The notes under the pieces were generated by a model. The model searched no databases. It saw only the letters and a program-made list of their open reading frames with translations, and had not been told where the DNA came from. 64,000 nt of DNA, taken from assembly GCA_018670085.1 (NCBI GenBank), contig JABHRS010000037.1:28500-92499 (forward strand), read 5' to 3'. This DNA is from an archaeon (lineage in GTDB: Archaea; Nanobdellota; Nanobdellia; Woesearchaeales; GW2011-AR9). Every line of letters begins with the position of its first letter. Position 1 is the first letter of the stretch. Positions 9,741 to 58,863 of the stretch are shown here, in pieces. The translations under genes and the position numbers were made by a program.

Positions 9741-9869
9741 ACTAGATCAGTTGAATCAATGGGACGTTTGTTCCTTGTTCATTTTTTTTATTTTTATTTT
9801 TTATTAATTCTCAAATACTTCAAAAATTCTCAATAATCATTATATAGAAACAAACATATTAAACAATCT

Positions 9870-13253: not shown

Positions 13254-13262
13254 TTTCTAAGT

Positions 13263-37912: not shown

Positions 37913-40900
37913 TCATGCATTTAAATCTTTCCTTAATTCCCCTAGATGATCTTTCATCCCACCTAAAGTATCAAACAATACTGGTCGAACTGGACCAAAA
38001 ACAAAAATAATCAAACATCCCCCAACAATCAATAATAAAAACAGAAATGCAATTTTTGCTTCTCGGTTTGGCAGAGTATCTTGATAAATAATGTAGGCTG
38101 CTTCTTCAGTCTGTTCATAAGCTACACTCACAATTTGAGAAAACGAAATTGCAGCAGTCATATCTGAAACTAATGCACCAGTCAACGAGTTCCCACCTTC
38201 CTCATAATTTTCCAGATCAGTTGATTCAGATTCCAATTCACTAGCTGCTATTTCGGATTCAATAGTATCTTGCAGATCATTTTCTGAGTCCAAATCAAGT
38301 AAAAAAGACTGAGAAGACAATTTACCCCTATCATCAGAGATCACCATATCAACAACATATTTACCACTTGAAAGCTGATCTGGATTATAACCAAACTTCT
38401 GTGCAAATACAAATCCTTCTTGATCAGAATCCACCCCTTCTAATTGAGTCGAAATATCATACGGTCCATAAACATCAGTAAATAAAATTCTTGAATCTGA
38501 TCCAGTCAGTAATGATCCTAAAAATGAAAATTTCCCACCTAAGTTTCCGAAACTACCTTCAGAAACATCTCTTAAACTAATTTCTAAATACTGACCATCG
38601 TAAACAGTGAACCCTGAATACGGATCAAATGAATCAATTAATTCACCTGGAATTCCAGCAATTGCTCCTGTTAAGCCATTAGCACTAACAGAATCAGTTA
38701 CAGACTGGATTAAAGAAGAATCAGTTTTTTCTCTTTCAATAATTACTGCAAAAACATCAATACTATTTCCATCTTCACTAGGTACAACTGAACTTGTAGT
38801 CACAACTTCACGCTTTATTTCTAATTCTTGAGTATAAACAGCTTCATCAGAAAGGTCCCCATCTTCTCCAGCAAAAAATGCCACTGTCACAAAAGTGTTA
38901 CTTGTAGTTGCATAACCACCTGTAACTTCTACTTGAACATTTTCAGTACTTCCAGGTGCAATTACAATTCTTTCAATTGCCCCAAGTGATGCACTAACCA
39001 TATCACTAGACACAGCAGATGAGGAAACTTTTAATGCACTGCCACCACTAGTGGCACCATCATATACTTTTCTTGTGATTACAGGTTTTACATCTTCAAC
39101 TTCTTGTGTTGCAATTGGTTTTAGAACCATTGATTTTTCTAAATCAGTATTTTGAATCGATAAAGTAATTTTTTCTCTTGGCAATTCTGCAACTCTTCTT
39201 GCATCATATGAACTATCTACTACAGCTGCAGTTTTTTGAGAGATATCAGAACTACCAAAATCAGCCTCAGATCCAGATTCAGATCCAGAACTATCACCAG
39301 TAGATGATCCACTTGAAGTACTGCCAGCATCGCCTGCTAAATTAGAACTTTCACTACCAGTATCATCAGTTTCACCTGACACTTCACTTATTTCTCCATC
39401 AGGACCAATAATTGTTCCGATGACAGGTGCATCCACAGGTTCAGAATCAATTAAATTTACTATTAAATTCTCTTTAACTAATTCAGGCGCCAATATTTCA
39501 TCAGCTGGAGGTAACTCAGCATTTATTGGTCCAACTACTTGACCTTCTTGTGTTGGTGCATATGCAACTGACCCATCAGAATCAGTGTTGCCTGAATCAG
39601 CTATATTACTATCAGCATCACTCCCCTCAGTTTCCGAATTTTCAGATTCTGAATTACTCTCTTCTGAAGATTCACTTTCACCACTATTCCCACTACTCCC
39701 ACTACTTCCGCTACCGCTACTTTCACAATCTTTTACTTCAATTGGTTTTCCATTATCTACACCACAAGCATTTGAATCCACACAACTTCTTGCTTGGGTA
39801 CTCCCAGTACATGCTTGCCATGCTCCACAAGACCAACTTGGAGAACAACTAAGTAATGGGAAATAATCCTCTACAGGTTCGGAATCAGTTATAGACACAG
39901 TATATGGAAGCAAAGTATCACCAACACCATCATAACTTACATTATTAGGATAAGATGAACCAGATCCATCATCTAAACCAGTATAGTTTTGCCAATAATT
40001 TCCACCAGTACAATTTCCACTGAGAATATTCAAATAATCATCTGAACAACCATAACTAATATTGTAAGTATTATTCCCTGCTGCCAAAATATTATTTCTA
40101 GTAGCGTTAAATTTATTATTATAAATTGAATTATCAAAACCCCAAGATAAATTTAATCCAGTGACTAAATTCTCAGCAACATTTCCTTCAATAGTACTAC
40201 TGTTCACATCTTCAAGTAAAAAACCATATTCTTCCGCACTAATAATTGACACATTAGTGATATTAACTGAACTTGCATGTCTAATTACAAAAGAATTTTC
40301 AAAGTCATCTACAAATCCATTTTTGATAACTAAACTACTTATATTCCCAATTGAAAAAGCATTTCCAGTATCATCACCGTTTATAGAATAACCTGCAAGG
40401 TCAATTACCAAACTGTTAGTTTCGATATCAAAACAATCTCCAGCAGCGTTAATATCTTCTGTTAAAGTCACACTACTAGTGAGAGTTCCACAACTAAGAT
40501 CAGCATCAGAGACGTTAATAATCACAGTTGCATTAGCATGACTAAGGCTAGTCAAGTTGATAGTTGAATTAACTGCGATGTCATATCCACTTTTTATTCC
40601 TTCAACAAAATGAGGTGTAGCATAATCCCATCCAGTAGAACTGATGGTTCCCTCAGACACAATTTGTCCAAGCACAAAACCATCACTTCCAGTTGTTGCA
40701 CTTAAAACAGACAGATTACTAATATTATAAATGTTAACTGTCGCTGCATTTACAGCTATTCCTGTTGAATTACTAACATTTACATCAACATACCACTGAA
40801 GCAAAATACTCGCATTTGACCCTGGATCAAAAGAGACATTATTTTTATCAAAAGTTACATTTCTAAAAATATGATCCCCTTGTAAACCAGCAACTTCATT

Positions 40901-43900
40901 CTCCCCAGGTGAATTCTTCACAAATGTATCATTCACAAAAGTTGAATTAGAACCATTTTCCAAATATACAATTGTGTTAGCTGTAGAAATTAAAGTGTTA
41001 TTAATGAATTCAGTATGATGTGGTTCATAATTTTCACTACCAAAATGAACTGCATAAAATCCAGAAACAATATCATTTGAATCAAAGATATTCTCATCAC
41101 CAATAATTAAAACCGCAGGATATAGCACAGATAATGAAGTGATATTATTAGTTGTAAAATTACCATCTGATCCTGAAACAACAGTATTTTGAGCAGAGCT
41201 GAGATTATTATCCAGGAATATATTACTCGCACCGACTGTACTTACGTTTACAGCTGTTCCTTCATAAGCAAAAACATCATTTCTATAAAATCTATGGCTA
41301 GAACTAGAACCAACTTGAATAGCATCATTATTTCCAGATGCGATGATAGTGTTAGACTCCAATGTGGCCCCACTGGACCCAGCAAGAAAGGCAACATTTG
41401 CATTTAAACCACCACTACAGTTACAATCAATAATGCTGTTATTAACTACGGTCCCATCACTTCCAATAAAAATCCCATACTCTCCTTGAGTTGTGTTAAT
41501 TGTCACATTGTTTACAAGATTATTAGCTCCAGCAGATCCAAGCTGAATCCCAGAACTAAAATTCAAAATATTTGCAAAATTAATAATTGTGACATTGGAG
41601 TTATTTCCAACACTAATTCCATGCCCACTACTATCACCTTGAATAGAATAACCCTTCCCATTCAGTTCTATATTACTTGCATTAATAGTAAAACAAGTTC
41701 CAGTTGCGTTATTGTTCTGAGTTACATCAAAATCAGCGTTGATGGTAGTACAGTCTGTAGAACTAGAGCTAGTACTATAATTACTAAACCCAGTAACATT
41801 TGCTGACAAAATACCTGAAGACACATCATAACTAATGTTACAAAGTGAAAGATCATTATCACAACGAGTACCATCTTTCAAAAGTTGAGGCGTTTCAGGA
41901 TAAGACAAATTTTCAATAGTAATCTGAATTACTCTAGTTGCATTCAAAGTACTAAGGCTAGTATTCATCTCAAATCCGATATTATTTTGTTCTAAATAAT
42001 GTGAATCACCAAACAGCAAGTTTGTATCTGTAGATAAATTAGTAGAATTAAAGAACAAAATACTTCCATAAAAATTCTCAAATTTCAATGAACTGGTCTC
42101 AGTTAAATCAGTTCTATCATCAATCTGAAAAAAATCATCATTTTCATTTACTGTGATATTTGTGAAGAGATTACTGTTTGAATTAACCTGAAACACAAAT
42201 GATCCATTTCTAATTGAAATCTCGCTAACATTACTATCGGTTATTGATTCTAAAATTAGCTCATCATTTGTGATAGTAAAATTCTTAATTGTGATTAAAG
42301 AAGAACCAGTCATAAAAAAACCATCATTAAAATTATCATAAAGAATTATATCTTCAAAAGTTGTATAATTAGCTCCACCTAAAACATTAATACCTTTCTG
42401 GGAATGATTTACAAAAGTAAGATTATAAAAAGTACTATTTGGAGTAGAAATTTGTATCCCATTTGAATTATTGATAAAGTCAGAGTGAAAAACACTGATA
42501 TTGTTATCACCAACAACATCTGCCATAATTCCTGCTCCTTGCATATCCTTAAACCTAGAAGCTTCAATAAGAGTATTTGTAGCAGAATCCTCCAATTCAA
42601 CTCCACCGTTCCCATTAGTCATGTTTACATAACTCACTGTTGTGTTCTCAGAAGACTCCAACCCAACTGCAACACTAAAACCATCAATCTCCAAATTTTG
42701 AATTACCACATTATCAAAATCGCTCACATTAATTCCAAACCCACTACCATTCCCCGACAAACTAAATTGATTGAACCCATCAATTGTAATACCGCTTGCA
42801 TTGATAGTAAAGCAAGTTCCAACAGTTGTAATTGATTCACTAAATTCATAATCTGCATTTAAAAAAGTACAATCAGCATGCACAACTTCTGCAGTAGTAA
42901 AATTACTAAAACCAGATACATTTGCAAATAATGCAGTTTGGTTATAACTTACATTACAAAAATTAGTATCATCACATCTAACTCCATCTTTGAATAAGCC
43001 AGGAGTGTTTGAGTAAGATAAGTTATCAATCACGATTTGTGATGACACATTCAGATTCAAGTTGCTACCATTAATAGTGATACCAATGTTATTATTCTCA
43101 AAAATAAAAATCAGTCCAGGTTCCAGTTTAGTTGAAACTGTCAAATTAGTTGAACTAGTATTTATTGAACCATATGTTACATTACGATTAACAATATTAT
43201 TTGAATGTTCCAAACCAGTGAGGTCATTAATAGAATGATTTACTTGATTGGTCACAGTTATATCCCGAAGTTCATTTGATTCAGAATCCCCACTCAAAAT
43301 AATCCCAGTATTGAGATATTCTCCTAAATTGATCAGACTATTATTGACAGTATCCAACCTTAGAGTATTATTTGTTACAATATTTTCAGCAAATAAAATA
43401 TTATCTGAATGAAAAATATCTACACCACTAAAATTATGATCAGTAAAAAAATTCGATGAGATATTAGTCGAGTTTGAATCATTCAAGTAAATCCCAAAGG
43501 CACCATTTTCATAAATATTATTGCTGTCAATCACAGAGTTTATAACTTTAATATCAAGACCACTCAAGCTTTGATTAAATACTTTGTTTTCAGAGAGGTT
43601 CATCCCAGTTGCCACATTCTCCACTAGATACATTCCTTTCACATTAGAATGGATCTCATTTCCACTGAATGTGATATTATTCACATCTCCTGTTGAAAAA
43701 ACACCATAGTTTGCATTAATAGAGATACTGTTCATTGAAAAAGTGACAGTATCTATGTCCCCCAGTTCCATCCCTTCATTAAAACTTTCAATTGCACAGT
43801 TTTGAACAGTCACATTCTCAACACTAACAACTGTCAAACCGACATTTGTTTTAGCAGTTGTTCCTGTGATAGGAAAACCATTACAATCCAAAACAAGGTG

Positions 43901-44413
43901 ATCTTCACCAATTGTCAAACCATTTACCCCACTACATTTAGTAATATTATCAGTTGCATTTAATGTACGAGAAACCGTTAAAGTGTCACCGCAGTTACAA
44001 GGACTAACTCCACAATCAACTTGAGCCAATACTCCACCACCATCACCATCACTGGTTCCAGATAAAATATCACTACCACCAACCGCAGCACCAGTTAAAG
44101 AATTTCCAGAATCAGAAGAGAATAAATTAAAAAATTTTAAAACTATAGAACTTGATTCATCAGTAATTTCAGAATCCAAAGAGCTAACAGGATTATTTGG
44201 GTTAATAAGCTCAGTTTCAGTGATCTCAGAGTCCAGAGAATCAACGCCACCATAAGTTCCAGCACTAGTTACAATCGCACCAGTAATTTCTTGATCTAAT
44301 GGTGCACCAACATCAGAAGAGACCAGGATCACAATTCCAAGAATAACTGCAAGTAAACAAAATAATACTGTCCCTAGAACTACTTCTCTTTTAAACCGTT
44401 TTTGAGCACCCAT
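37913..44413 (-). CDS. Giant (2166 aa) cell-surface protein with at least 4 tandem right-handed parallel beta-helix (NosD/pectate-lyase-like) modules, Ser/Gly-rich linkers, an N-terminal signal anchor and a C-terminal TM anchor
   Basis: Repeated module C..TINA..G.CF.I.A..I.LdG.g..I.G....GI.v....v.I.N. Very many N-x-S/T sequons. N-terminal VVLGTVLFCLLAVILGIVILV and C-terminal IAFLFLLLIVGGCLIIFVFGPV hydrophobic segments. Confidence 0.85.
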   Translation of the reverse strand: MGAQKRFKREVVLGTVLFCLLAVILGIVILVSSDVGAPLDQEITGAIVTSAGTYGGVDSLDSEITETELINPNNPVSSLDSEITDESSSIVLKFFNLFSSDSGNSLTGAAVGGSDILSGTSDGDGGGVLAQVDCGVSPCNCGDTLTVSRTLNATDNITKCSGVNGLTIGEDHLVLDCNGFPITGTTAKTNVGLTVVSVENVTVQNCAIESFNEGMELGDIDTVTFSMNSISINANYGVFSTGDVNNITFSGNEIHSNVKGMYLVENVATGMNLSENKVFNQSLSGLDIKVINSVIDSNNIYENGAFGIYLNDSNSTNISSNFFTDHNFSGVDIFHSDNILFAENIVTNNTLRLDTVNNSLINLGEYLNTGIILSGDSESNELRDITVTNQVNHSINDLTGLEHSNNIVNRNVTYGSINTSSTNLTVSTKLEPGLIFIFENNNIGITINGSNLNLNVSSQIVIDNLSYSNTPGLFKDGVRCDDTNFCNVSYNQTALFANVSGFSNFTTAEVVHADCTFLNADYEFSESITTVGTCFTINASGITIDGFNQFSLSGNGSGFGINVSDFDNVVIQNLEIDGFSVAVGLESSENTTVSYVNMTNGNGGVELEDSATNTLIEASRFKDMQGAGIMADVVGDNNISVFHSDFINNSNGIQISTPNSTFYNLTFVNHSQKGINVLGGANYTTFEDIILYDNFNDGFFMTGSSLITIKNFTITNDELILESITDSNVSEISIRNGSFVFQVNSNSNLFTNITVNENDDFFQIDDRTDLTETSSLKFENFYGSILFFNSTNLSTDTNLLFGDSHYLEQNNIGFEMNTSLSTLNATRVIQITIENLSYPETPQLLKDGTRCDNDLSLCNISYDVSSGILSANVTGFSNYSTSSSSTDCTTINADFDVTQNNNATGTCFTINASNIELNGKGYSIQGDSSGHGISVGNNSNVTIINFANILNFSSGIQLGSAGANNLVNNVTINTTQGEYGIFIGSDGTVVNNSIIDCNCSGGLNANVAFLAGSSGATLESNTIIASGNNDAIQVGSSSSHRFYRNDVFAYEGTAVNVSTVGASNIFLDNNLSSAQNTVVSGSDGNFTTNNITSLSVLYPAVLIIGDENIFDSNDIVSGFYAVHFGSENYEPHHTEFINNTLISTANTIVYLENGSNSTFVNDTFVKNSPGENEVAGLQGDHIFRNVTFDKNNVSFDPGSNASILLQWYVDVNVSNSTGIAVNAATVNIYNISNLSVLSATTGSDGFVLGQIVSEGTISSTGWDYATPHFVEGIKSGYDIAVNSTINLTSLSHANATVIINVSDADLSCGTLTSSVTLTEDINAAGDCFDIETNSLVIDLAGYSINGDDTGNAFSIGNISSLVIKNGFVDDFENSFVIRHASSVNITNVSIISAEEYGFLLEDVNSSTIEGNVAENLVTGLNLSWGFDNSIYNNKFNATRNNILAAGNNTYNISYGCSDDYLNILSGNCTGGNYWQNYTGLDDGSGSSYPNNVSYDGVGDTLLPYTVSITDSEPVEDYFPLLSCSPSWSCGAWQACTGSTQARSCVDSNACGVDNGKPIEVKDCESSGSGSSGSSGNSGESESSEESNSESENSETEGSDADSNIADSGNTDSDGSVAYAPTQEGQVVGPINAELPPADEILAPELVKENLIVNLIDSEPVDAPVIGTIIGPDGEISEVSGETDDTGSESSNLAGDAGSTSSGSSTGDSSGSESGSEADFGSSDISQKTAAVVDSSYDARRVAELPREKITLSIQNTDLEKSMVLKPIATQEVEDVKPVITRKVYDGATSGGSALKVSSSAVSSDMVSASLGAIERIVIAPGSTENVQVEVTGGYATTSNTFVTVAFFAGEDGDLSDEAVYTQELEIKREVVTTSSVVPSEDGNSIDVFAVIIEREKTDSSLIQSVTDSVSANGLTGAIAGIPGELIDSFDPYSGFTVYDGQYLEISLRDVSEGSFGNLGGKFSFLGSLLTGSDSRILFTDVYGPYDISTQLEGVDSDQEGFVFAQKFGYNPDQLSSGKYVVDMVISDDRGKLSSQSFLLDLDSENDLQDTIESEIAASELESESTDLENYEEGGNSLTGALVSDMTAAISFSQIVSVAYEQTEEAAYIIYQDTLPNREAKIAFLFLLLIVGGCLIIFVFGPVRPVLFDTLGGMKDHLGELRKDLNA

Positions 44414-45343: not shown

Positions 45344-46534
45344 TTATTCAAATAATTCCAAAAACTCAGCATAACCTTCTGATTCCATATTATCAATTGG
45401 TACAAATCTAAGAGCTGCAGAATTCATACAATAACGCATTCCGCCTTTATCAGTTGGACCGTCTGCAAACACGTGACCCAAATGTGAATCAGCAAGATTA
45501 CTTCTAATCTCAATTCTAGAATAGAAAAAACTTTTATCTTCTACATACTGAATATTTTCTTCAACTAATGGTTTTGTAAAACTTGGCCATCCAGTTTTAG
45601 AATCATACTTATCAAATGAAGCGTATAACGCTTCACCAGACAAAATATCAACATAGATTCCAACTTCATAAAAAGCATCATACTCTCCAGAGAACGATCT
45701 CTCAGTGCCACTTTCTTGGGTCACATGATATTCCAACTCAGTTAAAATTTCTCGCAGCTCAGCATCACTTGGTTTTTCAAAAACTTTAGCTGCAACATTA
45801 TTTGAAACTAAAGTAATATCCTCAGAGTACAGAAAAGATTCAAACAAATCCAAATTCTCCTGAGTCCAAATTTCTTCAAGGAATTGATCACGCCCACTAT
45901 TACCCCGGTAATAAGAATAGCGGATAGGATTTTTTGTATGATAATCTTGATGATAATCTTCAGCGAAATAAAATGCTTCGAATGGTAAAACTTCTACTGA
46001 AAATTCATTCCCCTCATAAAGATTCAAAGTAGCAAGTTCAGATAAGACCTGCTCTGCAATTTGCATTTCACTTTCACTGCTGTAAAAAATAGCACTTCGA
46101 TATTGATCTCCTCGATCAACAAAAGAACCAGTTGCATCAGTTGGATCAATTTGTAACAACAGCAGATGCACTAATTCTTCAAAGCTGACAACAGTTTCAT
46201 CATAGTGAACTTCTACAGTCTCAGTATGACCAGTAGTGCCAGAAGAAGCTTCAGCATAGCTAGGATCAACTGTCACTCCTCCACTAAAACCAGAGTATAC
46301 TTCAATAACTCCATCAAGTTTTTCAAAAGCAGATTCTGTGCACCAAAAACAACCACCTGCAAAATGTGCAACTGAGTAACTTGCATTCTCAATGTGTTCT
46401 GAGTTATCAGAAGAGGGTGTTGGTTCAAGTTCAGATTCAGCTGATGGACCAATCATTTCCAGTTCAGAAACAGAGCTACAGCTTGACAATATCAAAAATG
46501 AGAAGATTACAAAAATAAAAATAAATTTTTTCAT
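45344..46534 (-). CDS. msrAB: Bifunctional peptide methionine sulfoxide reductase MsrA-MsrB, lipoprotein-type signal
   Basis: N-terminal LILSSCSS lipobox-like signal. GCFWCTE (MsrA active site). C-terminal GWPSF...RSNLADSHLGHVFADGP (MsrB). Confidence 0.9.
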   Translation of the reverse strand: MKKFIFIFVIFSFLILSSCSSVSELEMIGPSAESELEPTPSSDNSEHIENASYSVAHFAGGCFWCTESAFEKLDGVIEVYSGFSGGVTVDPSYAEASSGTTGHTETVEVHYDETVVSFEELVHLLLLQIDPTDATGSFVDRGDQYRSAIFYSSESEMQIAEQVLSELATLNLYEGNEFSVEVLPFEAFYFAEDYHQDYHTKNPIRYSYYRGNSGRDQFLEEIWTQENLDLFESFLYSEDITLVSNNVAAKVFEKPSDAELREILTELEYHVTQESGTERSFSGEYDAFYEVGIYVDILSGEALYASFDKYDSKTGWPSFTKPLVEENIQYVEDKSFFYSRIEIRSNLADSHLGHVFADGPTDKGGMRYCMNSAALRFVPIDNMESEGYAEFLELFE

Positions 46535-47587: not shown

Positions 47588-47914
47588 TTATTTCCCTTCA
47601 ATAATCTCATACTCTTTAACAATCACCCACAAGAACAGAAGTAATAACACTGCTCCAGCTAGCATATACCAAGCTCCAGCAACCAAGGAATCGTTGGATA
47701 AAGATTGATACATCCCAAAACCCATTACTGCAAATCCAAGCCATAGAAATTTATCAAGTACCAATTTCATAATTTCAAATTCTTGAGCTTCACTCATTTT
47801 CCGCTTACCTGAACGAGAAGATCTAGATTTTGAAGCTGCAACTGATTTTGCTGTCACCCTTCTAACTTTTGTTCGACTTCGACTCACTTTTCTTTTTCTT
47901 ACCATCACCATCAC
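47588..47914 (-). CDS. Small membrane protein with an Arg/Lys/Ser-rich N-terminus
   Basis: Basic N-terminal tail and two hydrophobic helices. First gene downstream of the pilin-like gene. Confidence 0.4.
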   Translation of the reverse strand: MMVMVRKRKVSRSRTKVRRVTAKSVAASKSRSSRSGKRKMSEAQEFEIMKLVLDKFLWLGFAVMGFGMYQSLSNDSLVAGAWYMLAGAVLLLLFLWVIVKEYEIIEGK

Positions 47915-47956
47915 CTGTATAATTTATTAAAAAAATAAAAAACCAATCAAAAAAAC

Positions 47957-48598
47957 CTATGAGGTTTTAATGAAAAAGGTTGTACTATCATATTCTTCCC
48001 AACTTGTACCATCATCTTCGCTTTCTTCAAGGACTGCCTTATACAAGTATGTACCTTGTTTACTCGGTGCTACAATTGAAAATGAGATCACCTGTGTTTC
48101 TCCAGCTGGAAGTGATTGTGCTGAGTTATCCCAAAGTATTTCAGCTTCAGCTTCGCCAAACTCCAACTTTTCACCTGGAGTAAAATCCACAAAACCATCA
48201 CCATCATTAACTTGGAACCCTAATCTAAAATGTTTAGACTGATCATCAACATTTTTTATTCCAACAGCCAGTACATCTTCTTCTTTAGTTTCATAAACTA
48301 AGTCATTACTTGGAAAACTAAGTCGATTATTACTTCGTCTTAAATCTTCTTGAATTTGTTCTGCGATTTGTGTTTGAACGGAACTTGATGTATCAGTAAT
48401 TTGCTCGAATTGACCCTTAACAAAACCTAAACCTAAACCTAAAACAACGAATGCAATTACAACTATTACAATTGCTTCAATAGAAAGATTCAATGAAGCC
48501 TTTTTCCCACTAGAAAAAATACTAAAAAAACCCTGATTTTCCCCTGCTTTTTTTCTAAACCATCCTTTAACCATTTGACCACCTCTTTGTATACACAC
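47957..48598 (-). CDS. Archaeal type IV pilin-like protein with a class III (prepilin) signal peptide
   Basis: KKASLNLSIEAIVIVVIAFVVLGLGLG resembles the archaeal pilin N-terminus ([KR][GA] then a hydrophobic helix with SLEAAIVLIAFVV). Adjacent to the prepilin peptidase gene. Confidence 0.55.
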   Translation of the reverse strand: MCIQRGGQMVKGWFRKKAGENQGFFSIFSSGKKASLNLSIEAIVIVVIAFVVLGLGLGFVKGQFEQITDTSSSVQTQIAEQIQEDLRRSNNRLSFPSNDLVYETKEEDVLAVGIKNVDDQSKHFRLGFQVNDGDGFVDFTPGEKLEFGEAEAEILWDNSAQSLPAGETQVISFSIVAPSKQGTYLYKAVLEESEDDGTSWEEYDSTTFFIKTS

Positions 48599-48662
48599 AT
48601 TATATCATGAGTGTTCTGATATTTACTATTAATTATTACTAATAAAATATAAACATTCTTGC

Positions 48663-49535
48663 CTATAAAAAGCTTTGCAATATTGGCATCCAATTTTCTT
48701 GAGTTAGAAGCAGAATATAACCAAACAAAAATGCTGGAACAAATGGTACACCTTCTTTAATCACTACGTTTTTAACAATTCCAGTTCCGTACCATTTTAA
48801 TAATTTTTGAAGGTCACTTCTCTCAATTGTTTTAGGATAAATTGTTGCCCCTTTTTCACCCCTAACTTTTTCAACCAACCAATCACCTTCAACCAAATCA
48901 AGAATATTTCTTTTTTGAACAAAACATGATCTTTCAACTGCTACAATCCCAACAAATAACAAATAACTTAGGATCACAATTAATCCAAGTGATGAAAAAA
49001 TCCAATGAACTCTCATTCCTAAAAAAATACTTACAACAAAAACTCCGATTGCAGCTTTAAAATATCCACTTGACTCATAAAATAATTGTCTAAATTCATG
49101 TATGAAAGCACCTCTGTGTTCAATTGCCAAACCGATACTCCAAAGAAGAGAATAAGCAGCTCCGGAAAAAAGAAGTAACAAGATAAAAGCTAACAAATCA
49201 AATCCGATTATACCAAGTTCAGTTGATAATGATTTAAACAAAAAATCAACGCCAATAACCGCACCCATTCCGATTAAAAGTTTACTATCAGCTCCCCCCC
49301 ATTGTCCAGTGTAATACAATAATAAAGCAATTATAAAACAAATTACAAGTCCAATTAATCCACTAATGATTAATTCTACACCTAAAGTGAAGGAGAATAA
49401 CACACGTAAAATTAAAGCTGCAATTACCAAACCCCAACTAAGCAGATCAGCAACTTCGCGATGTTTAATATCAGAAATTGAACTAGCTATTAAGATAAAA
49501 AAAACCACAACTGACATCACAGAACTAAAAACCAT
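48663..49535 (-). CDS. Archaeal prepilin/preflagellin peptidase (A24 family, FlaK/PibD-like)
   Basis: SISDIKHREVAD (DxKxREIPD first catalytic Asp box) and QWGGADSKLLIG (GGADxKL second Asp box). Polytopic membrane protein. Confidence 0.7.
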   Translation of the reverse strand: MVFSSVMSVVVFFILIASSISDIKHREVADLLSWGLVIAALILRVLFSFTLGVELIISGLIGLVICFIIALLLYYTGQWGGADSKLLIGMGAVIGVDFLFKSLSTELGIIGFDLLAFILLLLFSGAAYSLLWSIGLAIEHRGAFIHEFRQLFYESSGYFKAAIGVFVVSIFLGMRVHWIFSSLGLIVILSYLLFVGIVAVERSCFVQKRNILDLVEGDWLVEKVRGEKGATIYPKTIERSDLQKLLKWYGTGIVKNVVIKEGVPFVPAFLFGYILLLTQENWMPILQSFL

Positions 49536-49540
49536 TTATT

Positions 49541-50545
49541 TCACTTCTTACGAATTCTTGGCGGAGGTGGCAAAGGTAACTCTCCAATCACTTCATCTTG
49601 AATTTTTGATTCTTCAGCAGCAGATAAACCACCTTGTGATAATTTTGATTCCAAATTAGACATGTGTTCACCTGATTCAGCAGTACTTTCAACTGTTGAA
49701 ACATTAGCTGCACCCATCATCATAGTATGTTTAATTTCCATGTTATTATCTTGAACCTCAGTTCCAGAAAGTCCTACAACACCCTCTTGATCTAAAGAAA
49801 TTTTTTCATCAGGTGAGTCAGGCAAGTCAACAATGTTTTGAACATTCAATTCTTCATGTACATCAGGATACTTATGTTGAATATCTTGGATTTTCATTTC
49901 AAGTTCTGTAATTTGAGTTTGGATTTTCTTTAATTGAATTGGATTCAAATTAGAAGTTTCAGCTTTCAATTCTAATTCATGTTTGACACTTCTAATTCGG
50001 TGAAATAAGATTGAAGCCCGACGAACTTTTAATGAATTTTCAGAATCAACTGATTCAGATGTTGGTTTAGAAACTAATTTCCTAGAAGAGTTACGCTGTT
50101 TAACATCTGTGTTAGGCTTAACTTGATTTAATTCTTTCAATAAAGATTGCGAAAGTGCTACATCTTTTTTTAGTTCAGATTTTGCAAGTAACTCTGACAA
50201 GATGTGATAAAGTTTAGTGACTTTTTCTTGTAGCTCTTTATCTTCAGCTGCGTTTATCCTATTTTTTAATGAAGTGATTTGCCTTTTCAAAGAACTAACT
50301 TTTTGAGACTCTTTTGCCTCATTTTTCAACAGTTTATCCTCGAGGACAAAAATATGTTCTAATTTTTTTTCCAAATGAACAATCTCTTTTCTAAGACTAA
50401 GTCTTGGCACATTTTTTTGAGTAGAGAGATATTTAATTTCATCAATTTTTTGAGAAATTTCTTTTTTATTGATTTTTTGCCTCATACCATCTTGAGCTGA
50501 TGCTAATGAGTGTAACAATTTTTTTGCTCTAAATGCTGTAGCCAC
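49541..50545 (-). CDS. Coiled-coil protein with a proline-rich C-terminus
   Basis: Heptad-like charged repeats. C-terminal LPLPPPPRIRKK. Confidence 0.5.
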   Translation of the reverse strand: MATAFRAKKLLHSLASAQDGMRQKINKKEISQKIDEIKYLSTQKNVPRLSLRKEIVHLEKKLEHIFVLEDKLLKNEAKESQKVSSLKRQITSLKNRINAAEDKELQEKVTKLYHILSELLAKSELKKDVALSQSLLKELNQVKPNTDVKQRNSSRKLVSKPTSESVDSENSLKVRRASILFHRIRSVKHELELKAETSNLNPIQLKKIQTQITELEMKIQDIQHKYPDVHEELNVQNIVDLPDSPDEKISLDQEGVVGLSGTEVQDNNMEIKHTMMMGAANVSTVESTAESGEHMSNLESKLSQGGLSAAEESKIQDEVIGELPLPPPPRIRKK

Positions 50546-50639
50546 TTTTTTACCTTCTTATTGAGATTAATTTTTTTGATTCTGTATATTTTGATTCTAT
50601 ATATCAAATAAAAATTATAATTCTAAAATAATTAAAAAA

Positions 50640-51218
50640 TTAAAAAAATCCATGTCTTTTTTTACTTTTTTCCAATCCAGGCGGTGGAGGTGGAATTCCT
50701 CCAATACCAGCAACACTTGCTGAACCCATAGTAGGAAGTGGTGGAACCATTGAAGCACCAACACCTGCACTCATCATATTAGGAGGAGCAGAAAAAGAAC
50801 CACCCTGCATATTACTTGGCATACCTGTGTTTGCTGAAGGGATACTCTGCACTGCAGCAACAGGTTTACTTGAATTTGTAAATTGTTCAATCTTATCTGA
50901 AATAGCAATCATTCCTCTTGCAATAGTTTCGTTTTGAGTTACAACGGCATCAATTCTTTCATTCAAATGTTTAATTGATTTGAAGATATCTTCATCTGCT
51001 GTTGTGTCTAATGCTTTTTTGAATACATCATTCAATTCATGAATTGAATCTTTCAAACTTTCAATCTCCAAGATAAGTTCATTTGTTTTGGTATCTGGTT
51101 CTTGTAATTTCTTTTTTAATGCCTCAACATCATATTTGAGATCCTCAAGTAAACTGTGAGGAAGAATTTCATAATCTTGCTTTGTCATCCCTGCCACCTC
51201 TTTGTAATCGATAATCAC
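50640..51218 (-). CDS. Coiled-coil protein with a Gly/Pro/Met-rich C-terminus
   Basis: N-terminal coiled coil. C-terminal ...PPLPTMGSASVAGIGGIPPPPPGLEKSKKRHGFF. Same architecture as 49541..50545. Confidence 0.5.
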   Translation of the reverse strand: MIIDYKEVAGMTKQDYEILPHSLLEDLKYDVEALKKKLQEPDTKTNELILEIESLKDSIHELNDVFKKALDTTADEDIFKSIKHLNERIDAVVTQNETIARGMIAISDKIEQFTNSSKPVAAVQSIPSANTGMPSNMQGGSFSAPPNMMSAGVGASMVPPLPTMGSASVAGIGGIPPPPPGLEKSKKRHGFF

Positions 51219-51413: not shown

Positions 51414-51599
51414 ATGTTTACCATGATAGTTGTAAGAACTCAAATAAAGGATCTATTGAAAGAAAGTGGCACTGACGTACAAAATATCTCAAGTGATTTT
51501 TGTGAAAAACTTGATGCAAAGGTACGTGAATTAGTTACAGAAGCTTGCAAACGCGCAGCAGCTAATAGCAGACGCACAGCAATGGCAAGAGACATTTAA
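51414..51599 (+). CDS. Small histone-fold-like protein (tentative)
   Basis: 61 aa. Pattern I.KD.....G...VS.D....L...V.E......K.A....RRT....DI parallels archaeal histone alpha1-L1-alpha2. Confidence 0.35.
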   Translation: MFTMIVVRTQIKDLLKESGTDVQNISSDFCEKLDAKVRELVTEACKRAAANSRRTAMARDI

Positions 51600-51632: not shown

Positions 51633-52025
51633 ATGGATTCATGTATTTTTTGCAAAATTGTTGTAGGTGAGATACCTAGTTACAAAGTTTTTGAAGATGA
51701 GAATTTTTTAGCCTTCTTAGATATTACACCAAAAAAAGAAGGTCATACATTGGTGATTCCCAAGAAACATTATAGATGGGTTTGGGATGTAAAAGAAAAT
51801 TATTCAGTAACTACAAATAAAGTTGCTAATGCTCTTAAGAAAGCATTTGACACCGATTGGGTTGTGTCTTTTGTGATGGGCGAAGAAGTTCATCATGCTC
51901 ATATCCATTTAGTCCCAAGGCAACGTGATGACGGGCACGGATCATTAATTAATGTAGATTCTAAAGTTGAAATAAATAAAGAAGAAATGCTTGAAATCGC
52001 TCAAAAAATTCGTGATTCTTTTTGA
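51633..52025 (+). CDS. HIT-family (histidine triad) nucleotide hydrolase
   Basis: CIFCKI..., HTLVIPKKH, HHAHIHLVP (HxHxHxx). Confidence 0.8.
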   Translation: MDSCIFCKIVVGEIPSYKVFEDENFLAFLDITPKKEGHTLVIPKKHYRWVWDVKENYSVTTNKVANALKKAFDTDWVVSFVMGEEVHHAHIHLVPRQRDDGHGSLINVDSKVEINKEEMLEIAQKIRDSF

Positions 52026-52346: not shown

Positions 52347-52961
52347 ATGAAAATCACTAAAAATTTCGCAATTCTCTATGGAATCCTACTAGGAGATGGT
52401 TGTTTATCAAATACTTCCAAAGCAAGATATATTTGTATTACTTGTGACAGATATTCTGATAAAGAGTTGTTCAAAAAATTAACACCTATTATTGAAAAAA
52501 TAAGAGGTAAAAAAATTAAAATAAAAGATAGAGGAACACATGGAACAATTGAGATTAAATTCTCAGATAAAAAGATGTTTGAAACATTTAAAAAAATTGG
52601 TTTTCCAGTTGGGAAAAAAGGAGTAAATCTTTTCATCCCGAAAATTTTTAAAAATCATTTGAAGGAAGTTATTCAAGGTCATTTTGCAACGGATGGGTGT
52701 GTTGTAATCACAAACAATAATGGAATTAGATATCCAAGAATTGAATTTTCAAGTATCTCTAAAGGTCTTTTAGAACAAATAAACAAATATCTCATAAACA
52801 GTAATATTAGAAGTAAAATATATCTTTCAAAGAGATACACTAATGGATGGAATAATTTGTACAGAATTCAGATAAATGGAAAGAAACAACTATGTATTTT
52901 TGAAGAGAAAATAGGATTTTTCAACCCAAAACACAAAAAAATAGCAGATTCATTCAAATAA
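52347..52961 (+). CDS. LAGLIDADG homing endonuclease (double-motif, free-standing)
   Basis: ILYGILLGDGCL (first LAGLIDADG) and IQGHFATDGCV (second), separated by about 100 aa. Typical basic DNA-binding surface. Confidence 0.8.
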   Translation: MKITKNFAILYGILLGDGCLSNTSKARYICITCDRYSDKELFKKLTPIIEKIRGKKIKIKDRGTHGTIEIKFSDKKMFETFKKIGFPVGKKGVNLFIPKIFKNHLKEVIQGHFATDGCVVITNNNGIRYPRIEFSSISKGLLEQINKYLINSNIRSKIYLSKRYTNGWNNLYRIQINGKKQLCIFEEKIGFFNPKHKKIADSFK

Positions 52962-54659: not shown

Positions 54660-54742
54660 GCCAACGTGGCACAATCTGGTACTGCGCAAGACTGGAAATC
54701 TTGTTTCCTCTGGATATCCCGGTTCAAATCCGGGCGTTGGCG
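54660..54742 (+). tRNA. tRNA-Ser (anticodon GGA), class II
   Basis: Acceptor GCCAACG/CGUUGGC, discriminator G. U8. 3-bp D-stem. Anticodon stem CAAGA/UCUUG with loop C-U-GGA-A-A. 14-nt variable arm. T-arm CCCGG-UUCAAAU-CCGGG. 83 nt. Confidence 0.85.
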
Positions 54743-55040
54743 CTTTTTCTTTTACCTAGCGCCGCACCTTAGAAATAGGGCATATTTGAGTATTGGACTT
54801 GTACTAACTTAAAAGATCCTATTCTAGGCTCTTTCAACAAGTGTAAGTCCTAATGGCCAAAGTAATCACTTATGGAATTCTATAAGCAGTTTCTTTGTTT
54901 TTGGAGTAAATAAGCCTCTGAACTATATAATATTTTCTTGGTAACATGGCCATTAGTGGTCCAGGAGGAATAAATACTCTTTTTCCCCATATTAGATCTG
55001 AACAATTCATCTGGTTCAAAATAATTTAGGGGGAAATACA

Positions 55041-55286
55041 ATGGAAGCATTGGATATGAAAGTATTACAAGAAGATAGAAGTGAACATATTGAGTACTGC
55101 CTTAGACAAATTGGATCTTTAGTTAATTCTGGATTTGTAATGTCGGCAGAACCGTATGTAGATCACTTGTGTGGTAAAGAACTTGGATTGTATGCTAGTG
55201 AATTTGAAACGTTGTGTTTCAATTTTGCCATTGAGCACAGTTTACGCACTGGTGAGATCAGCCCATATCTTTGGGGTGCACAATGA
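55041..55286 (+). CDS. Hypothetical soluble protein, first gene of an ATGA-coupled operon
   Basis: SD-like tagggggaa upstream. Stop overlaps the next start (ATGA). Confidence 0.5.
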   Translation: MEALDMKVLQEDRSEHIEYCLRQIGSLVNSGFVMSAEPYVDHLCGKELGLYASEFETLCFNFAIEHSLRTGEISPYLWGAQ

Positions 55287-55429
55287 AGTGTCTTGTCTGT
55301 AAAGGGGATGCCAATCAAGAACTTTGCGACACCTGTGCACAAATTCTGCTTGACAAATATCCTAACGAATCCATTTGGGATATCATCAAGCGTTACGAAG
55401 AATATTGCTATGGAGGTGAAGAAGAATGA
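55283..55429 (+). CDS. Small zinc-ribbon protein (48 aa, not in the supplied ORF track)
   Basis: MKCLVCKGDANQELCDTCAQ... (CxxC-x8-CxxC). Start and stop both in ATGA overlaps with neighbouring genes. Confidence 0.45.
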   Translation: MKCLVCKGDANQELCDTCAQILLDKYPNESIWDIIKRYEEYCYGGEEE

Positions 55430-55689
55430 TAGTAGGAGATTGGAAAGCAATACTTGCTACACTGTGGGTTGCATTGTGTCTTGTCTTTATTGTGTATATG
55501 ATAGAAGCGGCAAGTTATGATGTGGCTCTTGGTTTTATCGTAGGAGTAGCAGTTGTGTCAGTTTTCTTTTTGATACAACCAAACAAGTGCCGTGTTACTC
55601 AAGAAGAAGCTCCAGAAATTCTAGAAGAAGGAGATGACAGTTTACTAACACGGGTGTTTACACCTGGTTTTGTGGAGGTGAGACAATGA
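55426..55689 (+). CDS. Small two-TM membrane protein
   Basis: Two hydrophobic helices. ATGA-coupled on both sides. Confidence 0.5.
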   Translation: MIVGDWKAILATLWVALCLVFIVYMIEAASYDVALGFIVGVAVVSVFFLIQPNKCRVTQEEAPEILEEGDDSLLTRVFTPGFVEVRQ

Positions 55690-56012
55690 AACAAATATTT
55701 TCAGTCTTATTTTTGTTATTGCTGATTGCACCAATGGCATTTGCAGAAATAGACTTTGACGGAGAAGAACTCAGTACAGAAGAAGAAGCATTGCTTGATG
55801 AGATCATGGATCCAATATTCACAATTTACAATGCTCTGAAATATGTGGCAACTGTAATTGGTGTAATGGTTCTTGTCTTTGCAGGAGTTAGTTTAATGAC
55901 AGCTTCAGAACCTGCAAAAAAAGATCGAGCAAAGAATATGCTAATGGGAGTAGTTATTGGATTAACTATTATCTGGACAGCACCATTAATTGTGGAGTTA
56001 GTGTTCACATGA
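55686..56012 (+). CDS. VirB2/TrbC/CedA1-like pilin-type protein (signal peptide plus two TM helices)
   Basis: Cleavable signal MKQIFSVLFLLLLIAPMAFA, acidic segment, then two hydrophobic helices separated by a short K/R loop (SEPAKKDRAKNM). 108 aa. Confidence 0.5.
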   Translation: MKQIFSVLFLLLLIAPMAFAEIDFDGEELSTEEEALLDEIMDPIFTIYNALKYVATVIGVMVLVFAGVSLMTASEPAKKDRAKNMLMGVVIGLTIIWTAPLIVELVFT

Positions 56013-58045
56013 AACTAGCTCCATATTTTTTTCTTTTTGTATTATTAGTTAGCTCTGCGCTAGCTTTTGATTGCTCTTATGCTTCTGATAGCGAAGTTTG
56101 TGAAGAAGTGTTAGACTCTGATTTGGGTCGCTCTGAAATAGAAGAAGCTTTGTCTTCTCTTTTTTATGAAAAAACCAGTAATCCAGATCATGATTTTGTT
56201 TCAGAGTATAATAAGGCAATTGAAGTAAATTCTGCACCAAACGATGTTGAAATAATTGATTCTTCTTACATTTACGATGCATGGGTTTCTTTAGACACAC
56301 TGTCCCCTTCTGTTTATGAAACAGATGAGTTGTTAGTTCCGCCAGAAGTTGAAGCTATTTTTCACTCTGATTATTCTGTATCAATTCCTGGGTCTTACAC
56401 TGCAAGTAAATATCCTTACACCAATAGTGGCTACTGTAAACGCAGGTATTCATTGGCCTCTGAAGATGTAAAAGAATGGTTTTCAGTAAATGATGAATTA
56501 TTTGAAACCAATGAACTAACTGTAGGTAGCTCAAGTATAATATCTTATCATCAAAAAATTACTGTTAAGGTTAATGAAGCACAGTATAAATGGAAAGAAG
56601 TATGGAATAGTCATTATCACATGTATCAATGGAAGTGTGAATACTATAGAACTCTTACTCACACAGACGTTGTAGATTTAGAAGATAGTAAAGACGTAAG
56701 TAGGCGCACGCTAGATCCAAGTTATGCTATTCTTTGGTCATCACGTTATCGTGGCACTTCAACAGGCGAATTTTATGCGCACAACTACGCGCAAATAGAA
56801 TTGTCTTTTGGAAATTCCAGTTACACAGAGCAAGCGTTTGTGTACTATGTTGTGTTTGAAAAAGAACCGTACGATTTTGCAGTGTTAGTTGCCAAAGAAG
56901 TGGACAACACAGCAATTCAAGGAATGTATGTTGATGAAAACCTGTTTTATGTTGCTAACACTGCCTTGTGTCAAATAGTTGGTTACAACCATTTCTTCTC
57001 AATCACAGAAGATTGTGAAGTAGATGAAGATATTGAAGAATTAAGTGCTTCTTTTTCAACAGAGGAATCAAACTTTGATCTTACACTGTTGTATTATTTC
57101 ATTTTATTGGGTTTAGTATGCTATCTTCTTTTCAAGTTACTTGGTTCGCAGCTACGTAAAATTCTTCCATACTTTATTTTGCCGTTGTTATTGATTCCGA
57201 ATGTTTTGGCTGCGGATGAAGACTGTGGTCTTACCAATTTATCAAGTTGTATTCCTGAAGCGATGTATGATTTTATTTTAAGTATAATTAACTTGACATT
57301 ATCTCCAAGTTTAGAAATCATTCAAAATTTACTTACAAGTGATATTGACATTTCTCTCTTTTATCACGCATGGTCTGTAATACGCTATATGATTTCATTC
57401 TTCTATGTATTCTTTTTTGTCTACGCGGGCTGTGTGCTTTTGATGGGAAGTGCCAGTCCAATTCAGAGAGCGCACGCCAAAGATATGCTCAAGAACACGT
57501 TCATAATGATACTTCTGATTCACGGATCGTATTATCTTTATGATTTGTTTATTACACTTTCCAGTACAATGAGTGGGGCTATTTTAGAAATGATTGACCC
57601 TACATTCTTTATGCTGACAGCTGACAATATAATTAATATCGGGCTAGAGTTCATGTTTACTTGGTTCTATAGTTTGACATTAACATTCACAATATTATTT
57701 TTGACCTTTCGTTATATTGTTGTTGTTACAGGAGTGATTGTATTACCTATTGCACTTTTTTGTTTCTTTATTCCTCCTTTGAAAGCCTATGGTAAGTTTA
57801 TGCTTTCTGTAATTGGATTAATGCTCTTCATAACATTCATTGACTTGCTAATTATCTTAGCCTGTGCATCATTGGTAGAAATTACTCTGTTTGAAAGTAT
57901 GAAAATTTTAGTAATGATTGTTTGTTTTCTTTTCATCAATTACACACTATGGCTGTGCACTAAGTTTGCCTTTGCCATGAGTGTGAATGGTTCAATCAAA
58001 GATGATGTTAAGCAAGCTGCGAAGTATGTGGCATTGTTAGTGTAG
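56009..58045 (+). CDS. VirB6/TrbL/CedA-like polytopic membrane protein with a large N-terminal extracytoplasmic domain
   Basis: Signal peptide, an approx. 330-aa Cys-containing soluble domain, then at least 6 C-terminal TM helices. Operon partner of the VirB4-like ATPase. Confidence 0.5.
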   Translation: MKLAPYFFLFVLLVSSALAFDCSYASDSEVCEEVLDSDLGRSEIEEALSSLFYEKTSNPDHDFVSEYNKAIEVNSAPNDVEIIDSSYIYDAWVSLDTLSPSVYETDELLVPPEVEAIFHSDYSVSIPGSYTASKYPYTNSGYCKRRYSLASEDVKEWFSVNDELFETNELTVGSSSIISYHQKITVKVNEAQYKWKEVWNSHYHMYQWKCEYYRTLTHTDVVDLEDSKDVSRRTLDPSYAILWSSRYRGTSTGEFYAHNYAQIELSFGNSSYTEQAFVYYVVFEKEPYDFAVLVAKEVDNTAIQGMYVDENLFYVANTALCQIVGYNHFFSITEDCEVDEDIEELSASFSTEESNFDLTLLYYFILLGLVCYLLFKLLGSQLRKILPYFILPLLLIPNVLAADEDCGLTNLSSCIPEAMYDFILSIINLTLSPSLEIIQNLLTSDIDISLFYHAWSVIRYMISFFYVFFFVYAGCVLLMGSASPIQRAHAKDMLKNTFIMILLIHGSYYLYDLFITLSSTMSGAILEMIDPTFFMLTADNIINIGLEFMFTWFYSLTLTFTILFLTFRYIVVVTGVIVLPIALFCFFIPPLKAYGKFMLSVIGLMLFITFIDLLIILACASLVEITLFESMKILVMIVCFLFINYTLWLCTKFAFAMSVNGSIKDDVKQAAKYVALLV

Positions 58046-58103
58046 GTTAGCTAGGTGCATACTAGTTAGTCTTTAGAAGTGGTGAGGAAGGTAACGCTTC
58101 CTT

Positions 58104-58427
58104 TTATTTTCTTGGTTTACCTGAATTCACATGAAAATGTAAGTGTTTAGAATCTTGATAGTTTCCTAAATTCGTAAGAACTCTGCATTGTCCGTGTTCC
58201 TCTGTCACTTCTTTAGATACTCTTTGTAACACATCCATAATTTCTATGATTAATGATCTATCAGTCAATGTGAGTAAAGAATTAATATGCTTCTTTGGTA
58301 CAACAACAATATGTACTGGCCAAAATGGCTTCGTGTGATAATAAGCAAGCACATTTTCAGTTTCTAGTACCTTCTTAACAGGAGTCTTCCCACTGAAAAC
58401 TTCATCACAATAAAAGTCGTCTGTCAT
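58104..58427 (-). CDS. HIT-family protein
   Basis: HIVVVPKKHINSLL and HLHFHV (histidine triad). Confidence 0.75.
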   Translation of the reverse strand: MTDDFYCDEVFSGKTPVKKVLETENVLAYYHTKPFWPVHIVVVPKKHINSLLTLTDRSLIIEIMDVLQRVSKEVTEEHGQCRVLTNLGNYQDSKHLHFHVNSGKPRK

Positions 58428-58430
58428 CTT

Positions 58431-58826
58431 CTACCTTTTTGAAATAACTAGTTCTTTAAATTTAGTTGTTTCATCAACCTTCCTTTCAAACCTTAAATCC
58501 CCAATTTCTCCAATGATAATTTCTGCGGTTGTGTAAATTATACATCCTTCTTTGAGATGTCCACCAAAGGTGTTACCATCTTTATCAGAGATAGAAAGAT
58601 GAAGATGTACTCCATCTGGTGAAAGAGTTCCCACAAGACTTACAATCTCAAACTTCTCTACAAATTCCTTTTTAATGTTTTCATCAGCTAATCGAAGTGT
58701 TGCTTTTGATAAAGAACCAACACAAGTAAGTATAACTCCTGCTTGAATTTTATTCTCATTGCAAAATTTGATTACTCTTTTTTTAAGATCTTGACCAGGA
58801 TGCAGCCGTATAGCATATGTTCTCAT
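58431..58826 (-). CDS. DUF296/PPC-domain (COG1661-like) predicted DNA-binding protein
   Basis: ILTCVGSLSKATLRL...GVHLHLSISDKDGNTFGGHL pattern typical of DUF296. Confidence 0.5.
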   Translation of the reverse strand: MRTYAIRLHPGQDLKKRVIKFCNENKIQAGVILTCVGSLSKATLRLADENIKKEFVEKFEIVSLVGTLSPDGVHLHLSISDKDGNTFGGHLKEGCIIYTTAEIIIGEIGDLRFERKVDETTKFKELVISKR

Positions 58827-58863
58827 GGTACCTCAATGTTTACTTCAATTATAAATTCTTCTC

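Follow-up and report, generated by a model that had tools for sequence, protein, structure and literature searches.

In most archaea, pilin genes, often those of the major pilins, lie outside the type IV pilus operons (Makarova et al., PMC4858521). The pilA1-6 genes of Haloferax volcanii and the major pilin gene of Methanococcus maripaludis are unlinked from the assembly machinery, and pilA1-6 are not co-regulated with pilB/C (PMC4371748). DPANN archaea are thought to be dependent on physical attachment to a host, and their surface filaments are almost uncharacterized. In this study, we analysed a 64-kb stretch of DNA (the window) from contig JABHRS010000037.1 of the assembly GCA_018670085.1, in which five genes at 47588-51218, all on the minus strand, encode a type IV pilin-like protein, an A24 prepilin peptidase, a small protein with two transmembrane (TM) segments and two coiled-coil proteins, here named cc192 and cc334. 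The window has a GC content of ~33% and contains archaeal markers (ribosomal proteins L15e and L11, and NurA); the host is a marine DPANN archaeon of the Woesearchaeota type. We propose, with a probability of about 0.68, that this region is a housekeeping type IV pilin locus beside a separate coiled-coil pair, the two being co-directional here by chance of lineage.

The locus is like PilA1-6 and PibD of H. volcanii in the class III signal, where position -2 is charged and -1 is G, A or S, in the almost completely conserved H-domain, in the pilin genes being unlinked from pilB/pilC, and in one general A24 peptidase of the PibD/FlaK type (PMC4371748). However, there is no detectable sequence similarity to PilA1-6, the host belongs to the DPANN archaea, Ser occupies +1 in the motif SLNLSI(E/Q), and the pilin gene adjoins the peptidase gene and then a conserved gene for a small two-TM protein. 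A peptidase whose gene shares a locus with those of its pilin substrates is known from EppA and Epd of M. maripaludis, and both systems have polar and acidic or amide residues a few positions past the cleavage site (QxSxE in Epd, SLNLSI(E/Q) in the window). EppA is a nine-TM form of arCOG02300 that needs Gln at +1 (PMC4858521, PMC4371748), whereas the enzyme of the window has a FlaK-type core with a putative type II C-terminal domain, and its substrate carries Ser at this position; the window locus also lacks the ATPase and platform of Epd. With FlaK (3S0X) and PibD, the enzyme shares the A24 fold region and both catalytic Asp residues, the second in a GG(A/G)D motif, but its 290 amino acids include additional TM segments and, towards the C-terminus, a soluble domain (weak PF06847), and it scores below the FlaK equivalog cut-off. 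A hydrophobic N-terminal helix with a beta-sandwich head, as predicted here, is also found in the Aap pili of the Sulfolobales and the type IV pili of Saccharolobus islandicus, and an adhesive role is presumed in the same way; on the other hand, the pilin-like protein has no sequence match to the solved pilins, and none of them was among its top 50 Foldseek matches. The Aap locus includes genes for an ATPase and a platform of its own.

Pilin-like protein and prepilin peptidase

The pilin with a class III signal that had been recognized in an earlier reading of the sequence alone was supported by our analysis of the family. The N-terminus KKA/SLNLSIEAIVIVVIAFVV (the slash marks the predicted processing site) has the form of an archaeal class III signal under the rule summarised in PMC4371748, and the segment ...GKKA/SLNLSIEAIVIVVIAFVVLGLGLGFV is nearly invariant across the family. 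The leader has 26 amino acids, with processing predicted at KKA26/S27 and the H-domain at residues 27-52. The N-terminal consensus of the family, [KR][KR][GA]/SLNLSI[QE]AIVIVVIAFVVLGLGLGFV, is nearly invariant as well, and the H-domain AIVIVVIAFVVLGLGLGFV has a mean Kyte-Doolittle value of 3.06. The processing-site pattern was matched by 115 of the 120 homologues listed, 113 of which have [KR][GA] at -2/-1 before the conserved Ser; in the other five listed homologues, Ala replaces this Ser. PibD was reported to have low stringency at +1 and +3 (PMC4371748). The AlphaFold2 model, made with an alignment of 60 sequences (mean predicted local distance difference test score 82), shows an N-terminal helix of 50 residues (30-80) followed by an immunoglobulin (Ig)-like beta-sandwich head at residues 85-205. 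Judged from sequence and model, the protein has all the hallmarks that archaeal type IV pilins show in their sequence, together with the fold.

The family comprises 281 database clusters at 90% identity, and its taxon labels are only archaeal (Woesearchaeota, Nanoarchaeota, or plain or unclassified "archaeon"); the automatic name given by JGI to its members is occasionally "pseudopilin PulG". The search of the PDB by sequence and profile returned nothing specific and no solved pilin. Since no sequence model of Pfam, NCBIfam or the PDB recognizes the protein, it belongs to an unannotated family and not to a named one. Sub-threshold Ig matches in the Pfam and NCBIfam searches were dismissed as noise. 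A six-frame regular-expression and hydropathy scan of the 64-kb window found no second pilin with a class III signal. Pilin-like paralogues were observed in other Woesearchaeota genomes, at 9385-9909 and 13245-13796 of the related locus L006 and at 12168-12731 of L009. They are 22-28% identical to the main pilin, have class III-type N-termini such as MKRGSIGLSVNILVVVIISLVILGLG, and lie beside large secreted proteins that are rich in Cys; in the window, no paralogue of this kind is present.

The A24 peptidase with both catalytic Asp boxes, also proposed from the sequence alone, was borne out by profile searches. The protein matches PF01478 with 38.1 bits (Pfam cut-off 26.5), and all eight orthologues match the same model (best E = 6e-15). 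FlaK (3S0X) was recovered with E = 6.5e-8 from the single sequence and 2.2e-11 with the orthologue profile. D22 (SISDIKHREV) and D83 (WGGADSKL) align on the two catalytic motifs of FlaK, and this Asp pair is present and invariant in all eight orthologues, which are 35-45% identical. The archaeal A24 C-terminal type II domain (Arc_PepC_II, PF06847) was matched weakly in five of the eight (best E = 2e-4). From about eight hydrophobic segments (seven hydropathy peaks and one sub-threshold segment), the peptidase is predicted to be a polytopic membrane protein, and the conserved soluble domain at its C-terminus (about residues 201-256) is, by this predicted topology, probably cytoplasmic. The NCBIfam equivalog of FlaK (NF040695) gave 45.1 bits against a cut-off of 330, over residues 13-95 only. 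As this score is below the cut-off, the enzyme is described here as a PibD/FlaK-type A24 peptidase and cannot be called a FlaK orthologue. It is probably the general prepilin peptidase of the cell.

The small two-TM protein is 58-75% identical to six orthologues, which exceeds the conservation of the pilin. Its core is QEFEIMKLVLDKFLWLGF...AGxWY..AGAVLLLLFL.IIVKEYE, and no family match was found in Pfam or NCBIfam. The gene lies directly 3' of the pilin gene, with a gap of 10-42 bp, in the window and in nine of the ten other pilin-bearing loci, the exception being L014.

From these components, we infer the following course of events. The prepilin would insert into the membrane through its hydrophobic H-domain, and the A24 aspartyl peptidase, with D22 and D83 at the cytoplasmic face of the membrane, would cut the basic leader after Lys-Ala to leave Ser27 as the N-terminal residue. 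The mature subunit would consist of the long N-terminal helix and the Ig-like beta-sandwich. With an ATPase of the FlaI/PilB type and a platform of the FlaJ/PilC type, whose genes would lie elsewhere in the genome, the pilin would then be polymerised to a surface filament that is probably adhesive, and the small two-TM protein may serve as a membrane co-factor of the pilin. Such a system is mechanistically ordinary and is no new kind of machine. The locus defines a widespread pilin family that has no curated model and is tied to a peptidase and a small membrane protein, and the major adhesion filament of the Woesearchaeales may well be built of this pilin.

Gene order in related genomes

The neighbourhoods of 11 loci were compared, namely the window and L006, L008, L009, L011, L012, L013, L014, L015, L016 and L017. 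Orthology was assigned by BLASTP in L006, L008 and L009, and by gene size, gene order and Pfam matches in the other loci. The peptidase and pilin genes are co-directional in every pilin-bearing genome and are adjacent or have one or two genes between them, which applies to all ten of the other genomes with the pilin. In the other pair, cc192 is always followed by cc334; the two genes are 94 bp apart in the window and only 2-34 bp apart in seven of the other loci. Relative to the peptidase gene, the pair varies in position. It is divergent from the peptidase gene in seven genomes (L008, L009, L011, L012, L013, L014 and L017), with extra genes in between in L012 and L014, and it lies three genes away on the opposite strand in L006. 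In L015, which carries a distant cc192 member, cc192 and cc334 stand together with a small histone-fold gene, and neither peptidase nor pilin was present in the 20 kb read. These observations suggest two separate conserved units, the one formed by the peptidase, the pilin and the small protein and the other by cc192 and cc334.

The sequence-only reading had described five same-strand genes forming one compact operon, with the Pro-rich coiled-coil proteins as part of the pilus-like module. The five genes are indeed on one strand, and each described element was found at its assigned position, but gene order and orientation vary among the 11 genomes, so the single operon or module is not upheld. 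Because only the window lineage and L016 (pilin ~80% identical) have the pair co-directional with the peptidase gene, and the other genomes have it divergent, separated or unlinked, the five-gene arrangement is a recent local inversion and not an ancestral operon. The whole region is syntenic, as HIT and histone-fold genes occur in nearly every locus and TIM, Lit and CxxCxxCC genes in subsets of them; therefore, the proximity of the pair to the peptidase gene is weak evidence.

The window has two genes of HIT-family hydrolases. One keeps its syntenic place near the locus in nearly all related genomes, and the other lies inside the type IV secretion system (T4SS)-like cluster described below and adjoins a PCC-domain gene.

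Assembly machinery and alternative explanations

The absence of a PilB/FlaI ATPase and a PilC/FlaJ platform from the locus had been pointed out before, and it extends to its surroundings. No T2SSE or T2SSF domain (PilB/FlaI, PilC/FlaJ) was found in the 48 open reading frames (ORFs) of the window that were scanned, which include every ORF of at least 190 amino acids, or within +/-10 kb of ten related loci (+/-6 kb in two of them). It is reported that flaB, flaH, flaI, flaJ and flaK are present in most metagenome-assembled genomes (MAGs) of Woesearchaeota (PMC11606122). As archaeal major pilin genes are typically outside the type IV pilus operons and flaI, flaJ and flaK are found in most Woesearchaeota MAGs, the absence of a nearby ATPase and platform is normal in archaea and calls for no non-canonical system. 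Of the two possibilities left by the sequence-only reading, we thus favour assembly genes that would be located elsewhere, and set aside the non-canonical module.

Several points weigh against a type IV pilin locus with an independent coiled-coil pair. With neither ATPase nor platform in the 64-kb window or the related loci, we can only infer that a type IV pilus machine assembles the protein in this organism. The leader of 26 amino acids far exceeds the family median of 6; the pilin of the window and its nearest relatives have leaders of 12-26 residues. Ser at +1 and Asn at +3 may be outside the strict FlaFind motif. No curated pilin or archaellin model of Pfam or NCBIfam matches the protein, and the top 50 Foldseek matches in the PDB are generic Ig/PapD-like sandwiches with no solved pilin among them. 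Lastly, the coiled-coil pair lies at most ~4 kb from the peptidase gene in 10 of the 11 genomes, so a functional link between the two may exist.

Some of these points would fit a protein that is cleaved by the peptidase but is no filament subunit. It could be a membrane-anchored surface Ig protein, similar to the sugar-binding proteins of Sulfolobus that bear class III signals (bindosome), or part of a short pseudopilus-like assembly. FlaFind-type signals are carried by many non-pilin surface proteins as well (PMC2910488, PMC4371748), and both the missing ATPase and platform and the generic character of the Foldseek matches agree with such a protein. We nevertheless regard it as fairly unlikely, as there is hardly any variation in the H-domain and along the entire alpha1 helix among orthologues of 45-55% identity, which would be expected where helices pack in a filament core. 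In its small size (~160 amino acids when mature) and its single-domain lollipop shape, the protein corresponds to a structural pilin, and the paralogues nearby in other genomes resemble sets of major and minor pilins. A highly divergent archaellin of a rotating motility filament is very improbable, and of the explanations considered here it is the least favoured. Weak Arch_flagellin matches occur in 4 of 60 family members (best E = 0.0065), but they are below threshold and limited to these few; FlaK is the best NCBIfam match of the peptidase, but with 45 bits against the cut-off of 330. In Woesearchaeota, fla genes are reported to be present and highly expressed (PMC11606122), yet FlaF, FlaG, FlaH, FlaI and FlaJ genes are nearby in none of the 11 loci, and where flaB is annotated in a MAG, that MAG must have another archaellin that can be recognised as such.

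It could further be assumed that all five genes form one non-canonical filament or adhesion module, in which the coiled-coil proteins replace the functions of ATPase, platform or accessory proteins, or dock the machinery. The genes are co-directional in the window and in L016, cc334 ends 5 bp from the peptidase gene, the pair remains within ~4 kb of that gene in 10 of 11 genomes, and the conserved C-terminal domain of the peptidase, if cytoplasmic as its topology predicts, could receive the PPPP tails of the coiled-coil proteins. This module is very unlikely, however. The pair is divergent in seven genomes, is separated by other genes in L006, L012 and L014 and is unlinked in L015, and proximity alone counts for little in a broadly syntenic region. 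Moreover, neither coiled-coil protein contains an NTPase motif or a TM segment, so they cannot power or template assembly. A type IV pilin locus with a coiled-coil pair of separate standing remains our preferred explanation.

Coiled-coil proteins

The two coiled-coil proteins with Pro-rich tails were noted in the sequence-only reading, and both do end in conserved polyproline motifs. The cc192 family has 328 close clusters and 701 representative clusters at 50% identity, and its distant members, where the source gives a taxon name, are Woesearchaeota or Nanoarchaeota. In the AlphaFold2 model of cc192, a confident antiparallel helical hairpin (H21-75/H78-116) is followed by a disordered tail. 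The tail consists of a linker rich in Pro, Met, Gly and Gln, an invariant PPPP and a basic-hydrophobic C-terminus, with the motif (I/F/L)PPPPP...KKRxG(L/F)F across the alignment; the C-terminus reads KKRHGFF in the window protein, and distant members have KKGLFGKLFKK there. The cc334 family has 153 homologue clusters with only archaeal labels (Woesearchaeota/Nanoarchaeota), and its members have a conserved helical N-terminal part of ~120 amino acids, a VKHxxLF motif and an invariant ELPLPPPPR at the C-terminus.

Neither a TM segment nor a signal peptide was found in cc192 or cc334. Searches against Pfam and NCBIfam gave no NTPase motif and only sub-threshold coiled-coil noise for both. The PDB searches returned no relative of cc192 and only generic coiled-coil matches for cc334, and Foldseek found nothing at E < 1 with the cc192 model. 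Modelling and profile searches, which had been proposed as a check on these proteins, revealed the hairpin and tail of cc192 and, for both proteins, nothing specific in the PDB. Matches to FlaC_arch and FliS (E ~0.03) were rejected as coiled-coil artefacts, and the possibility that cc192 and cc334 are paralogues was rejected as well (hhalign probability 2.8%).

By sequence, the two proteins are most likely a DPANN-restricted pair of cytoplasmic, membrane-associated scaffold proteins with docking-type PPPP motifs, and this is our best guess. The C-terminus of cc192 looks like an amphipathic membrane-targeting sequence. A similar design, a short basic-hydrophobic end after a flexible linker, is seen in the C-terminal sequences of the MinD/FtsA type, but the tail of cc192 in the window (KKRHGFF) is shorter and its helical-hairpin domain has no known relative. 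The link of the pair to the pilus is the conserved neighbourhood and no more. A role as DPANN-specific adaptors, with cc192 tethered to the membrane and the (F/L)PPPP and LPLPPPPR tails docking on the C-terminal domain of the peptidase or on a pilus platform, is quite unlikely in our view. If it were true, pilin processing or assembly would be coupled to a cytoskeleton-like scaffold in genome-reduced episymbionts, and the pair would represent a new class of accessory proteins of type IV filaments as well as a case of docking by polyproline motifs in archaea. As a conserved DPANN-only module, the coiled-coil pair is worth separate study. A small histone-fold, DUF1931-like protein of 56-61 amino acids always flanks the pair, even in L015, and the truly conserved triad is cc192, cc334 and this protein.

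Layout of the locus and neighbouring genes

The positions of the genes and other elements in the window are given in Table 1.

Table 1. Genes and sequence elements of the pilin locus and its surroundings in the 64-kb window
Feature	Position	Strand	Remarks
Small two-TM protein, basic N-terminus	47588-47914	-	69-108 amino acids, depending on start
T-rich spacer 3' of the pilin stop codon	47915-47956	-	Three oligo-T runs of 6-7 bases each
Type IV pilin-like protein	47957-48574	-	205 amino acids from ATG 48574; ORF reaches GTG 48598
Class III signal peptide and H-domain of the pilin, MVKGWFRKKAGENQGFFSIFSSGKKA/SLNLSIEAIVIVVIAFVVLGLGLGFV	48419-48574	-	Read directly from the sequence
A24 prepilin/preflagellin peptidase, PibD/FlaK type	48663-49535	-	290 amino acids
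Codon of catalytic D83	49287-49289	-	
Codon of catalytic D22	49470-49472	-	
cc334	49541-50545	-	Second gene of the coiled-coil pair
cc192	50640-51218	-	First gene of the coiled-coil pair; likely true start ATG 51188, as in homologues, giving 182 amino acids
Beta-helix protein	37913-44413	-	2166 amino acids
MsrA-MsrB fusion (PMSR and SelR)	45344-46534	-	
Histone-fold/DUF1931-like protein	51414-51599	+	
HIT-family hydrolase, syntenic neighbour	51633-52025	+	
LAGLIDADG homing endonuclease	52347-52961		PF14528, 61.9 bits
tRNA-Ser(GGA)	54660-54743		
T4SS/conjugation-like cluster	55160-61971	+	
TrbC/VirB2-type T4SS pilin	55686-56012		PF18895, 42.8 bits
678-amino-acid protein	56009-58045		No Pfam match
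HIT-family hydrolase in the T4SS-like cluster	58104-58427	-	
VirB4/TraC/TraG-P-loop ATPase	58864-61971		1035 amino acids

As the host is archaeal, the spacers were read by eye instead of with a scanner for sigma-70 promoters and terminators. Since cc334 ends 5 bp before the start of the peptidase gene, read-through from cc334 into the peptidase gene is likely in the window. The pilin gene is preceded by its own TATA-like box and ribosome-binding site, the latter being GAGGTG-like and just upstream of the ATG. The T-rich spacer behind the pilin gene could be an archaeal terminator or attenuator, which is weak evidence at ~33% GC, and oligo-T runs were also seen after cc192. In such an AT-rich genome, TATA-like boxes, ribosome-binding sites and oligo-T signals would mark transcript boundaries only weakly. 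Identical copies of the peptidase gene were found on 17 metagenomic contigs of the JGI, ENA and Logan assemblies, the longest of 159 kb, and the gene order is the same in all six places shown among these contigs.

Two further genes lie on the same strand. The 2166-amino-acid protein, encoded four genes downstream of the pilin locus, has a signal anchor at its N-terminus, a TM segment at its C-terminus and NosD/beta-helix repeats, and is a candidate adhesin. Giant beta-helix proteins were also seen 3' of the locus in L017, and giant genes are located there in L013 and L016, with no family match recorded. The MsrA-MsrB gene follows the pilin locus in the window, and in L016 the distance between them is shorter by one gene. 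The lipoprotein-like signal at the N-terminus of its product (MKKFIFIFVIFSFLILSSCSS) points to a methionine-sulfoxide reductase that acts outside the cytoplasm.

About 4 kb from the pilin and coiled-coil region lies the T4SS/conjugation-like cluster, which is possibly Ced/Ted-like and also contains several small membrane ORFs. It is a second pilus-type system, unrelated to the type IV pilin, and could be a DNA-transfer apparatus. The LAGLIDADG gene is free-standing and has tRNA-Ser(GGA) and several ORFs with no family match near it, and LAGLIDADG and phage-integrase fragments are present in L013 at the equivalent position beyond the HIT gene. Therefore, a mobile element that carries the T4SS-like genes may be integrated at 52-62 kb.

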